Part shown: piece by piece, positions 14-4,837 of the stretch
Layout: every line of letters starts with the position of its first letter
Numbering within the stretch: the first letter of the stretch is position 1
IMG/VR virus record: IMGVR_UViG_3300035698_019437
Location: 32,001 to 96,000 of that record
Origin: a virus
Length of the DNA: 64,000 bases
Strand: one strand, 5' to 3'
The notes under the pieces: generated by a model
What the model was told of the DNA's origin: nothing
Seen by the model: the letters and a program-made list of their open reading frames with translations, nothing else
The model's database searches: none
Program-made: the position numbers and the translations under genes

Positions 14-373
14 ATGACCCTCGACCTTAGAAAATGGGAAACTAACGAAGAATGGGAAGTAACCAAGAAGGCTATTTTTAAGAATCTTCCTGGTGGCTTT
101 GAATTTTTCGTGCAAGGAACTATGTTTAGTTGTGATCTACGTGCTGATGCATGTGGAAAAGACAAATTAGTATATACTGTATACGAAATAGATGATGATT
201 ATAATTTTGTTATGACGATAACATGTGATTTATATACTGGTGGTTGGAGCCGCACAAACACTTCGGCAAAAAGAGGGAATGAAAGCTATCATAGCATTTG
301 GTTAGCGGTTATAGACGTTTTTTATGATTGCGTGTTGGATTATCATTTTTCTTGGAGAGCCATGCGAATATGA
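14..373 (+). CDS. FxWxx[MI] array paralog 1 (hypothetical)
   Basis: LPGGFEFF near the N-terminus; ends FSWRAMRI-stop; ATGA overlap with the next gene. Confidence 0.8.
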   Translation: MTLDLRKWETNEEWEVTKKAIFKNLPGGFEFFVQGTMFSCDLRADACGKDKLVYTVYEIDDDYNFVMTITCDLYTGGWSRTNTSAKRGNESYHSIWLAVIDVFYDCVLDYHFSWRAMRI

Positions 374-678
374 AATACTATCCTCATCAAATCAGAACTT
401 TTGAGTTCTATCATGATGGCAGACATTATTTGGCTTATCAGCGTTTGAGTGAGTATCAGCAGTATTACTATTACACATCTTTTCGAAACAGTTCTGGAAT
501 GAAGATCAATTTTGTTGGTATTAGATGGAAAGAACCGGGAAGATTATTTATACTCATAGAAGATTATTATTCTACGCGATCACCCGACTTTGATACAATG
601 GGATTTTTAGATTCTGCAACAGATGCGTTTAAAACAAAGGTTTATTCTGCGTTTTTCTGGGAACAGATGGAAATATGA
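370..678 (+). CDS. FxWxx[MI] array paralog 2
   Basis: Start reassigned from 328 to the ATGA overlap at 370 (MKYYPHQIRTFEF); ends FFWEQMEI. Confidence 0.8.
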   Translation: MKYYPHQIRTFEFYHDGRHYLAYQRLSEYQQYYYYTSFRNSSGMKINFVGIRWKEPGRLFILIEDYYSTRSPDFDTMGFLDSATDAFKTKVYSAFFWEQMEI

Positions 679-680
679 AT

Positions 681-711
681 AGGTATTACCTGTTTTTTGT
701 TGTAATATAAT
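681..711 (+). promoter_or_regulatory. AGG-N18-GTAA promoter-like motif (overlaps TATAAT 706-711)
   Basis: Recurring intergenic motif; ATG at 716 follows with no SD. Confidence 0.6.
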
Positions 712-715
712 TCTT

Positions 716-1333
716 ATGAATTGGTATAAGCAAGCACAACCTATCAAGCAACCGTGGGAAATGACTCGTAGAGAGTTCATGGATTACCACAAAACAGGCC
801 ACATATCAGAAGGTACATACGATATGTACAGCACTCGCGAGGGTATTGACTGGTTGGGGCCAAAAGAAAAACAACCAATGGTTCATAGTAAAAAGACTTT
901 TGGAGATGTTGAAGTAGAGTTCCGGCAGACCGGCAAAAAAAACAAATACGTACGCACAGATGAAAACAATGAAATAGTACGAGACCCAGCAGGTACCGCA
1001 TTATATTTAACCGATGAAGAAATAGTTGAAAGGGGCTATTCGCCTTACGACACAGGTATTACAGCATACGATTCAGGAGGCCCGATTGGTTGGGTTGCCA
1101 ATAGTTTCGGCGTACCCGAAGTTTTTGTTATCAAAGAACGACAACGACTAGGTATCGGTACATATCTTTTATCTGAGTGGATGAAGCTTCGTAAACCAGA
1201 CCAACATTTCGGTCAAATGACAACTTCTGGCGAGAATATGTCTCTCTCTTATCACAAGCAACAAATTGCCGATGCTATTCGTGAAGGTAAATCCGTTCCT
1301 GATGAAGTGTTAAATGAGTATCCAGAGTTGTGA
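716..1333 (+). CDS. MNWYK-leader protein with GNAT-like acetyltransferase domain
   Basis: MNWYKQAQ start; VFVIKERQRLGIGTYLL matches GNAT motif A (Q/RxxGxG). Confidence 0.65.
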   Translation: MNWYKQAQPIKQPWEMTRREFMDYHKTGHISEGTYDMYSTREGIDWLGPKEKQPMVHSKKTFGDVEVEFRQTGKKNKYVRTDENNEIVRDPAGTALYLTDEEIVERGYSPYDTGITAYDSGGPIGWVANSFGVPEVFVIKERQRLGIGTYLLSEWMKLRKPDQHFGQMTTSGENMSLSYHKQQIADAIREGKSVPDEVLNEYPEL

Positions 1334-1387
1334 AATCTTGTTCGTTACAGGATGCCTTTTCTAGTGAAAAACCATTTCTTTAAATCG

Positions 1388-1415
1388 TTGATATTTGGTA
1401 TTTCTGCGTTATAAT
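1388..1415 (+). promoter_or_regulatory. sigma70-type promoter
   Basis: TTGATA-N16-TATAAT, 6 nt before ATG 1422. Confidence 0.55.
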
Positions 1416-1421
1416 GTGACT

Positions 1422-2397: not shown

Positions 2398-2681
2398 TAC
2401 CAGAACTTCCGGAACAATTTGAATTGTTTTTTGAAGAAAAGTTTTTTAGCTTCACCATGAAGCGTCAATGGACGAAGAACATACAGTTCCCTGTGATTTA
2501 TTTTATAAATAGCATTCCTTTTAACAGTAGCAAAAGCTATGTATCATCTTTACATCTCGATGTCCTTCACGGAGATTTATGTTTTAGTATTGCGAATAAC
2601 AGTAACATGGGTGAAGAGGCATGCATCTTGTTAGAAAAAATGAATGGTTTATGGTTTAAGTGGAGTTGGATGACGCGATGA
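2394..2681 (+). CDS. FxWxx[MI] array paralog 6
   Basis: ATGA overlap; LPEQFELF; ends FKWSWMTR. Confidence 0.8.
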   Translation: MIPELPEQFELFFEEKFFSFTMKRQWTKNIQFPVIYFINSIPFNSSKSYVSSLHLDVLHGDLCFSIANNSNMGEEACILLEKMNGLWFKWSWMTR

Positions 2682-3076
2682 CAAGGGCACTTGAACAAAC
2701 AAGAGCTTCTTTAAGATATGCCTATCATATAAAAGGACATTACCCTAAAGAATTCAGATTCTACGCGAATGGACTACCTTTTAGATGTGTTGCTAATCGC
2801 CGTCTAACGAGCGGAATGTATTATGCTTTGTATTATGAATTGTATTATGCTGGACCTTTTGCTGATGGTAAAATAGTTGACACGTTGATTGTAGATGTTT
2901 GTGATAGTATGACTTTTGATTGTGGGAGTAATCAGTATATACCTCATGCTTCTGATAGGTTTAAAGGAAATCAATTTAACATAGAAAAATGGTTTGTTAT
3001 ACAAGAAGCTCACGCCGTATTCGTTGATATTATGACTGATCCTTTTCATCTTTGTTGGGTGGATATAATAGTATGA
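2678..3076 (+). CDS. FxWxx[MI] array paralog 7
   Basis: ATGA overlap; YPKEFRFY; ends LCWVDIIV. Confidence 0.8.
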   Translation: MTRALEQTRASLRYAYHIKGHYPKEFRFYANGLPFRCVANRRLTSGMYYALYYELYYAGPFADGKIVDTLIVDVCDSMTFDCGSNQYIPHASDRFKGNQFNIEKWFVIQEAHAVFVDIMTDPFHLCWVDIIV

Positions 3077-3408
3077 TACCTATGAACCCAAATCTTCTTC
3101 CTCTTGAGGTAAATTTTTGTATTGAAGGAATTGAATTCAGGTGTTGTTTAACAAAAACAAAAACGGATACTGGTTTTTCTTATAGTTATAGAGTAATAGA
3201 AGACTTACATTTTCTTCCCGGTAAAGTATATTCCGTTCATTGTTTTTCTATAGAATATGGAGTTGATGAATCAAAAAGAGTCTACTTGCGAGCTGTCATA
3301 GACGGCAGAACGCCGTGTGATAAAGATTTTGTTATTAAACCCACCTGTAAATTACATGACATTCTTGCTGATGAGGGGTATTTTCATTGGAAACAGATAA
3401 TGATATGA
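3073..3408 (+). CDS. FxWxx[MI] array paralog 8
   Basis: ATGA overlap; LPLEVNFC; ends FHWKQIMI. Confidence 0.8.
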   Translation: MIPMNPNLLPLEVNFCIEGIEFRCCLTKTKTDTGFSYSYRVIEDLHFLPGKVYSVHCFSIEYGVDESKRVYLRAVIDGRTPCDKDFVIKPTCKLHDILADEGYFHWKQIMI

Positions 3409-3683
3409 AAGACTTTACTCCTCCTAGATTATTATCTTTTCATTTTGGATTTACGCACTATACTTGTCAAGTAGACTCCAAGAAAAAGACATGTACTGTT
3501 TATAAGACTTTTGGTATGGTTCCTGTTTTTATGGCTGAATTCTTTATAGATAATGAATATCTAGTTACAATGCGAGCGACACGCCGCTATGAGGAATATT
3601 GCTATACTTTAACAAAAAAGGTTGAAAGAGAATTTCGAGATTATATGATTAACAAGTTTATGTGGAAGAACATGAAAACATGA
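3405..3683 (+). CDS. FxWxx[MI] array paralog 9
   Basis: ATGA overlap; PPRLLSFHF; ends FMWKNMKT. Confidence 0.8.
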   Translation: MKDFTPPRLLSFHFGFTHYTCQVDSKKKTCTVYKTFGMVPVFMAEFFIDNEYLVTMRATRRYEEYCYTLTKKVEREFRDYMINKFMWKNMKT

Positions 3684-3967
3684 TAGATGAAGATTACAGA
3701 CTTCCGAGTTTTTTTGGAGTTAGAATCTCTGATCGTCTATTTGTCTGTACTATCCGTAAACTCAGAAATAGTTACAGGTATGTGGTTCATACTTCAATTG
3801 ATGGTGAGACTTTGAAGATTGGTTCTTTTTCGGTAGTTTTACGAAAAAATGGCAAGTATGGTATTATTAACTTTGAGAAAGAATATGTAGAACTTGTTAG
3901 CGTTATGACTAAAGAACTAAATCATGTTGTTAGCAACAGATTCTATTGGATAGAGATGGAAATATGA
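3680..3967 (+). CDS. FxWxx[MI] array paralog 10
   Basis: ATGA overlap; LPSFFGV; ends FYWIEMEI. Confidence 0.8.
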   Translation: MIDEDYRLPSFFGVRISDRLFVCTIRKLRNSYRYVVHTSIDGETLKIGSFSVVLRKNGKYGIINFEKEYVELVSVMTKELNHVVSNRFYWIEMEI

Positions 3968-4233
3968 ATTTATGTAGTAATACTTTACCTGTATTTTTTA
4001 AATTCGAGGTCGAGGATGAAGTGTGGACATGTTCAATTGCACAGGAACGTGGTCCTTATTATGTTGTAAGTTGTGGCTCATCAAGCGCAGGAGCTAATTT
4101 GTCTTTTTCCGATTCAGGGGATTACATTATATCATTATATACGGGAACAGATAGATGGGATAAAGTGTTTAAGAAAGCTTCTGATATATTGAACGAGTTA
4201 TGTTATTTTTGTTGGCAAGAAATGGAAATATGA
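3964..4233 (+). CDS. FxWxx[MI] array paralog 11
   Basis: ATGA overlap; LPVFFKF; ends FCWQEMEI. Confidence 0.8.
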   Translation: MNLCSNTLPVFFKFEVEDEVWTCSIAQERGPYYVVSCGSSSAGANLSFSDSGDYIISLYTGTDRWDKVFKKASDILNELCYFCWQEMEI

Positions 4234-4511
4234 ACGCAGATTTTCCAGATACATTTTGTTTTACCTACAGGATGGAGAGGATTGAAGCTATAAATAAGAG
4301 GGGAACTGGGCCGTTCTTATATGATTTAACCGGACTTTGTGGAAGAAGTATAGCAACCCTTGAAGTACGAAAATCTCATCTTGAAGGCGTAGTCGCGTTT
4401 AATATTTTAGACAAACTCGATTATCATGCTTTTGAAATTGGAAGAATAGCGTGTTGTTTATTGGAAAACATGTTAGGATTTTGGTTCGGATGGAAATGGA
4501 TGACTTTATGA
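4230..4511 (+). CDS. FxWxx[MI] array paralog 12
   Basis: ATGA overlap; FPDTFCF; ends FGWKWMTL. Confidence 0.8.
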   Translation: MNADFPDTFCFTYRMERIEAINKRGTGPFLYDLTGLCGRSIATLEVRKSHLEGVVAFNILDKLDYHAFEIGRIACCLLENMLGFWFGWKWMTL

Positions 4512-4837
4512 GTGATTGGTTTATAACTCGCGTTTCTTTGGGGAACAGGGCTATCAATTTCCCTCGTTTATTTGAATTTCGATTAAGTAATAAAATATAT
4601 CAATGTGAGTTAGTTTTTAAAGATTCGAAGCCTTATTATCTTATGTTTTGTATGGGGAAAGATGGGTTGCATTTTGAATGGGGTTCTTGTTCTAAAATGA
4701 CTATTTCTAGTAATGGTGAATATACTTTATCTGTTAGTCGTTTTGCGGATGAAAATAGTACACTTTCTGTAGCAGCCTCGGAAGTACTGAACGATCTTTG
4801 TTATAAATATTTTCATTGGATTCCTATGACAAGTTAA
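4508..4837 (+). CDS. FxWxx[MI] array paralog 13
   Basis: ATGA overlap; FPRLFEF; ends FHWIPMTS. Confidence 0.8.
   Translation: MSDWFITRVSLGNRAINFPRLFEFRLSNKIYQCELVFKDSKPYYLMFCMGKDGLHFEWGSCSKMTISSNGEYTLSVSRFADENSTLSVAASEVLNDLCYKYFHWIPMTS

Follow-up and report, generated by a model that had tools for sequence, protein, structure and literature searches.

The array and its junctions

The 64,000-nt stretch of DNA analysed here (the window; bases 32001-96000 of the 147,268-bp virus record IMGVR_UViG_3300035698_019437) opens with an array of 13 small, highly diverged genes whose products all end in a tail of the form [F/L]-x-W-x-x-[M/I]-x-x-COOH, with tryptophan at position -6 from the C-terminus in 13 of 13. 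The record has a GC content of ~35%, carries nearly all of its genes on one strand and has a CheckV completeness of 29%; it is therefore a fragment of a very large phage, with a complete genome of about 500 kb by the CheckV estimate. Sequence identical to the window was found in salt-lake metagenomes. A crude gene call on the 147-kb contig gave about 185 genes, and 29 of the 185 end in [F/L/M]-x-W-x-x-[M/I]-x-x, against 0.12 expected by chance.

Array coordinates are given in window numbering and with ATG starts; all of these open reading frames (ORFs) are on the + strand. The first pair, g1 (14-373; 119 amino acids, aa; tail FSWRAMRI) and g2 (370-678; 102 aa; FFWEQMEI), is joined by an ATGA overlap, and is followed by a gene at 716-1333 (+) that interrupts the array without belonging to its family: its product begins MNWYKQAQ and gave a weak GNAT-like match. 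The run then continues with g3 (1422-1769; FSWKEMTL), g4 (1766-2080; FRWEEITI), g5 (2077-2397; FVWQEIQI), g6 (2394-2681; FKWSWMTR), g7 (2678-3076; LCWVDIIV), g8 (3073-3408; FHWKQIMI), g9 (3405-3683; FMWKNMKT), g10 (3680-3967; FYWIEMEI), g11 (3964-4233; FCWQEMEI), g12 (4230-4511; FGWKWMTL) and g13 (4508-4837; FHWIPMTS), eleven family members with ten ATGA overlaps between them; g13 ends in a TAA stop, with no coupled gene 3' of it. A fourteenth tailed ORF (5374-5832, +; 152 aa; MPWKEIFI), also with a TAA stop and uncoupled downstream, is an outlier, scored only with a hidden Markov model (HMM) built partly from it.

Each gene from g1 to g12 ends in ATGA. At eleven of these sites the next gene is also a family member; the one after g2 instead leads only into an 11-codon ORF at 675-710 (MNRYYLFFVVI, then a stop), which may be what is left of an array member that the MNWY/GNAT-like gene displaced. 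As a chain, the ATGA overlaps amount to ordinary translational coupling. An earlier account made from the letters alone (the sequence-only reading) had listed the 13 ORFs with their tails, the tryptophan at -6 and the eleven ATGA junctions, all of which are as claimed, the quoted tails included; the further tailed genes on the contig come in addition. Its suggestion that the array continues upstream of base 1 did not hold: a LAGLIDADG/HNH-like homing-endonuclease gene ends at window base 13, directly before the array.

Divergence within the family is extreme, as that account had also said, with only three pairs detected by blastp at E<1e-3; despite this, a single HMM covers all array members. 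Near the N-terminus they carry a P..F.F motif, described earlier as [LFY]P..F.F-like and borne out here, in which the proline is invariant and both phenylalanines are present in at least 70% of members, and within the family a constant interval separates the tail from the conserved C-terminal helix that precedes it. The picture of constant ends around a variable middle stands for the C-terminus, across all tailed genes; at the N-terminus it does not, P..F.F being limited to the array family and nothing being common to the N-termini of the different body types.

The tail across the genome and the level of its constraint

Within the window, tryptophan at -6 occurs in 14 of the 76 + strand stop-to-stop ORFs of at least 60 aa, all 14 of them within 14-5832, and in 2 of 142 such ORFs on the - strand. 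The motif is tied to the chain end: in its strict form it has 28 terminal and 3 internal occurrences, and when the ten terminal positions were scanned without bias, only W(-6) (z=19), F(-8) (z=8.8) and M(-3) (z=7.1) were enriched. The final two positions are variable (I, L, V, T, R, K, S). Fifteen tailed genes lie outside the window's 14, mostly 22-30 kb upstream: fourteen are at genome positions 2375-10471, among nine tRNA genes and homing endonucleases, and one stands alone at 126523-126819, in a sugar-synthesis island.

In the upstream region (L001 1-10760) tailed small ORFs and three HNH/LAGLIDADG-type endonuclease genes are scattered among the nine tRNA genes, and a CYTH-domain gene (L001 9182-9727; Pfam E 1e-16) lies in the same tRNA-rich stretch. 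Since tRNA-Arg(tcg) at L001 8779-8850 overlaps the longest reading of a tailed ORF, which starts at 8793, the true start of that ORF is probably at 8853. The solitary gene at 126523-126819 is ATGA-coupled to the next gene, beyond which is a 408-aa ORF without a family match (L003 1524-3117); neither the coupled gene nor the 408-aa ORF has a counterpart in the related contigs considered below.

Is the tail conserved as protein or as nucleic acid? Phenylalanine at -8 is encoded by TTT 19 times and TTC 6 times, matching the genome usage of 71/29; synonymous-site behaviour had been proposed from the outset as a means of separating the two levels, and this result points to constraint on the protein. 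At -3, ATG, ATA, ATT and ATC are all in use, codons at the x positions vary widely, and in the junction DNA only the F, W and M/I codons and ATGA supply conserved columns. RNAalifold found no conserved pairing over 14 junctions. Chain-first genes carry no matching N-terminal peptide, and the selected frame is therefore that of the tail. Judged by these codon patterns, the constraint on the tail acts on the protein.

Translational coupling does leave a mark on it. The phage Shine-Dalgarno sequence, AGGAG, sits at about -13 to -9, where tail codons -5 and -4 fall; 9 of 17 ATGA-type tails contain a GAG/GGA/AGG core, vs 1 of 12 others, and at -4 there is an excess of GAG and CAG. Four upstream-cluster genes (genome 5429, 8026, 8205 and 10011) have a downstream NTG start (ATG, TTG or GTG) that overlaps their tryptophan codon. 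One could therefore regard the tail as a by-product or cis-acting device of coupling, serving as Shine-Dalgarno sequence or start of the next gene, or as a nascent peptide that modulates termination or re-initiation. Its conserved positions argue otherwise: TGG, at -17 to -15 relative to the ATGA start, falls beyond the Shine-Dalgarno window, and F(-8) and M/I(-3) are without an initiation role. TGG and ATN are retained in 12 of 12 tails that lack ATGA; seven of these are coupled by other overlaps or a 1-nt gap, and about five have no overlapping downstream gene. Intact chain-end tails are found at window 4837 and 5832 and at genome 5740, 10471 and 126819. The base before TGG is unbiased, and the overlap of NTG with the tryptophan codon is therefore opportunistic use rather than the cause of conservation. 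With neither a conserved RNA fold nor a matching peptide in chain-first genes, this explanation is very unlikely. Coupling colours only positions -5 and -4, not F, W or M/I, and even at those two it explains only part of what is seen; the prospect, entertained in the sequence-only reading, that it would explain the tail on its own has thus not been borne out.

That reading also offered the junction as a DNA recombination signal through which gene cassettes are expanded and shuffled. The same tail-plus-ATGA junction does flank unrelated bodies, the 11-codon remnant lies after g2, just where another gene sits in the array, and the slot is variable between related phages (see below). However, about 12 of 27 junction bases are fixed, every one of them dictated by a conserved codon or by ATGA, while synonymous sites are free, and an integrase-type repeat was not observed. 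In four metagenome runs (2017-2019) the sequence was identical, with no joints or variants, at a depth of 3-4x that affords low power. A recombination signal is barely credible as the source of the pattern.

Bodies, relatives and genomic setting

With the tails removed, blastp links the tailed proteins into small groups only: the array family, a MIPxxGQ trio, a CxxC pair and the 2727/3074 pair. Three zinc ribbons are grouped by cysteine pattern, not by blastp, and the remaining tailed proteins are singletons; body size ranges from the 56-aa four-cysteine zinc ribbons up to 152-aa proteins. When the array family is compared with the MIPxxGQ trio or the zinc ribbons by hhalign, only 6-9 tail columns align, and the array HMM finds none of the upstream tailed cluster. 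By these comparisons the tailed proteins comprise at least eight body types with no sequence relationship between them. One member of the MIPxxGQ trio (L001 3490-3729) has an in-frame TAG at codon 10 (MIPRVGQSI, stop, FLEK...), and there is no suppressor tRNA among the nine L001 tRNAs; this copy may be a pseudogene or a sequencing error.

The array family had not been recognised in the sequence-only reading, and it remains without a named relative here: Pfam-A and PHROG profile searches with the tailed proteins and their neighbours gave nothing at E<0.001 or above a curated cut-off, so the HMM match to a characterised family that was once envisaged did not appear. An AlphaFold2 model of g11 (from a 15-sequence alignment; predicted local distance difference test score, pLDDT, 75.6; predicted TM-score, pTM, 0.65) has five strands (11-58), a helix (63-79) and a coil tail (80-89) in which pLDDT is below 50 at 84-87. 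A convincing fold relative of this model was not found in PDB, BFVD or the ESM Atlas: the best Foldseek E against PDB and BFVD was about 0.1, the best VIA-align match, to the Aha1 N-domain, had a Z of 5.7, within chance range, and ESM Atlas scores were 0.82 or less.

These results bear on whether the tail might be an intrinsic structural element, a final strand or oligomerisation arm inherited from a single ancestor of all 29 proteins whose bodies have since diverged, with no external partner. Within the array family such a view has some appeal: the tail stands at its fixed distance from the conserved helix, hyper-divergence is evident there, and translationally coupled paralogues could assemble together. 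It is harder to extend to bodies that run from 56-aa zinc ribbons to 152 aa and whose profile similarity is confined to the tail, and in the g11 model the tail is the part of lowest confidence and is not packed. We consider a purely structural tail quite unlikely.

The tail is rare outside this phage. A profile search of 1.84 billion representatives, a metagenome search of the kind first proposed with the array, gave 12 matches; it did yield two foreign homologues, and otherwise only this phage itself, in the other ten. The foreign proteins, P0011 and P0012, share about 30% identity with g10 and g12/g6 and have the tails FHWQEMNI and FEWQWMKP; one of them is on a 625-bp contig (L004) in which three members are chained by 4-nt overlaps. 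Because homologues at ~30% identity keep the tail, it has outlived divergence that erased most of the body. Among the ten self matches, P0009 comes from a near-identical ENA contig (L047), which equals window 2010-3570 except for T3388C, changing the tryptophan of the g8 tail to arginine; its last 134 nt are unrelated to the window, which suggests that the end of this contig is chimeric.

Other searches came back empty. Window bases 1-6000 had no blastn match among INPHARED phages, a homologue search with one upstream tailed protein found none, and related-locus searches of viral and metagenome collections with single proteins and small alignments found no relatives. A degenerate tail pattern run over IMG/VR gave only single, chance-like occurrences among the matches listed. 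Five related IMG/VR contigs, found via an exonuclease (55-61% identity), have no tails and no C-terminal enrichment, two of the five beginning only at the homologue of genome 60 kb and so not including the relevant region.

One of the five, G005, spans the syntenic slot and has other small genes there; the array is therefore in a variable island. In G005 the slot (L165 10439-11642) holds six tandem small ORFs starting MK[MI]IQKII, with Ser/Trp-rich, low-complexity bodies. In the present phage, 5' of the homing-endonuclease gene are beta-helix and lectin-like fibre genes, and 3' of the array are MNWY-starting proteins, a tape-measure-like gene and giant virion genes: the array occupies a hypervariable slot between conserved virion modules. 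Over the beta-helix/lectin-like fibre block (L002 5000-13700; genome 21-29.7 kb) the GC content is 43-45%, vs ~35% elsewhere.

A sigma-70-like promoter, TTGATA-16-TATAAT, lies at 1388-1415 (+), before g3; it is a consensus match only (11/12). The scan covered the + strand, and of two 11/12 matches on the 147-kb contig this is the only intergenic one. Its -10 element ends 6 nt before the g3 ATG, with no Shine-Dalgarno sequence between, and the g3 mRNA may be leaderless. As a sequence match, the site hints at early transcription by the host polymerase.

Possible roles of the tail

The tail is thus a rare motif, bound to the free C-terminus, constrained as protein and carried on bodies unrelated in sequence. 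We lean, if narrowly, towards reading it as a portable docking or sorting tag: a C-terminal short linear motif, acting at the protein level, on at least 29 small soluble proteins. One common receptor would read the tag and, because the tryptophan is always exactly six residues from the C-terminus, would presumably sense the chain end too. The 13-gene array would be one diversified family within the tagged set, with a beta-sheet-plus-helix body, and its tail codons would also serve the initiation of the gene that follows, with positions -5 and -4 biased to a Shine-Dalgarno-like GAG or GGA. A repertoire docking on a common partner was one of the two possibilities raised with the array, and it is the one now favoured: the tail is C-terminus-tied and a low-confidence appendage in the model, and its protein-level constraint and sequence-unrelated bodies fit the same reading.

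Docking peptides that combine an aromatic residue with a hydrophobic one three positions on, at or near a free C-terminus, offer several leads: the chemoreceptor NWETF pentapeptide, the W-x-x-L of LIR/AIM motifs, class II PDZ ligands and the I-x-I tail of small heat-shock proteins. None of them is known to have the F-x-W-x-x-[MI]-x-x spacing, and no clear cognate domain was found on the contig. Among T4 replication and late-transcription proteins, unrelated members carry a common hydrophobic C-terminal peptide that plugs into one hub, the clamp; there the motif is another one, carried by established replisome and transcription factors rather than by some 30 small orphan proteins.

C-terminal degrons, ssrA among them, are also well established, and the tail might instead be a turnover tag through which early accessory proteins are cleared together by a protease or adaptor of host or phage origin (ClpXP-, Lon-, FtsH- or tail-specific-protease-like). 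Its strictly C-terminal position, the hydrophobic-x-hydrophobic pattern of its last three residues and its lack of structure in the g11 model would all suit a degron, and the promoter-like site before g3 suggests early genes. The details suit it less: the last two residues vary and the invariant tryptophan stands six residues in, unlike ssrA-type tags, and there is no ClpP, S41 or convincing PDZ gene on the contig. A degron is on the whole unlikely.

Several points also weigh against a docking tag. No receptor is found on the contig, which is about 29% of the genome: searches for HK97 (PF05065), gp23 capsid, ClpP and S41 gave none. The sole PDZ match is weak, a 116-aa ORF (genome 22019-22369) matching PDZ_2 over 42 residues at 15 bits and E 0.025, with a cut-off of 27. 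Coupling to a downstream gene in 24 of the 29 tailed genes leaves room for a cis translational role. The AlphaFold model of the MIPxxGQ trio (pLDDT 55.8) is too poor to show a different fold; the residues before the tail are not enriched in Pro/Gly, and a flexible linker rests on one AlphaFold model. Early transcription, if that is what the site before g3 hints at, would suit early cytoplasmic effectors better than virion cargo. As a candidate receptor the PDZ_2-matching ORF is weak: the match, at 15 bits, is probably spurious, and no PDB relative of the ORF was found.

Where might a docking tag take its carriers? By analogy, the tag is closest in logic to the capsid-targeting sequence (CTS) of phage T4 and to encapsulin cargo peptides. 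The T4 CTS is an N-terminal peptide on the divergent internal proteins IPI, IPII and IPIII, whose repertoire varies among T-even phages, a variation attributed to an arms race with the defences of the host (PMC9026906). Common to both cases are a short terminal peptide shared by small proteins with divergent bodies and a repertoire that differs between related phages. The T4 peptide, however, is an N-terminal propeptide of about 10 residues that is removed by the prohead protease gp21; the peptide described here is C-terminal and Trp-centred and has no recognised cleavage motif. In encapsulins, a C-terminal peptide suffices to dock unrelated cargo inside an HK97-fold shell, and peptides of both kinds, C-terminal and N-terminal, can coexist in a single system (PMC7355545). 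The phage likewise has a C-terminal peptide and a separate N-terminal motif, MNWY; unlike it, encapsulins are a cellular system with another sequence motif and few cargoes, and no shell, whether from a gp23-type or an HK97-type capsid gene, is recognised on the phage fragment. Loading into the virion for co-injection is the destination we favour, though it must be called doubtful.

The MNWY motif is carried by eight otherwise unrelated proteins (127-655 aa) that start M-[NS]-W-[YLN], mostly MNWY[KR], at window 716, 6080, 6743, 7399, 8123, 10077 and 11859 and at L001 12984. Starts of this type are present in all five related IMG/VR contigs, one to four in each; to judge from these sequences, MNWY looks like a second, clade-wide terminal motif.

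A broader proposal, which we would put somewhat short of even, is that this huge-phage lineage evolved a C-terminal label of its own, alongside MNWY, through which one receptor directs some 30 or more small effectors, unrelated to one another, to the same place (the inside of the capsid for co-injection, a compartment built by the phage, or a protease), with the array as a diversifying library of tagged proteins. Literature searches found no description of such a C-terminal tag, and, as far as these searches could tell, a Trp-centred one has not been described on huge-phage genes. About 16% of the fragment's genes carry it. The junctions provide a clean natural case of a protein motif whose codons are also part of the following gene's translation-initiation region. 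If one receptor does read the tag, the 8-mer would be a direct handle on that receptor, and the tag could list the whole effector set of an uncultured phage whose genes are otherwise unannotated.

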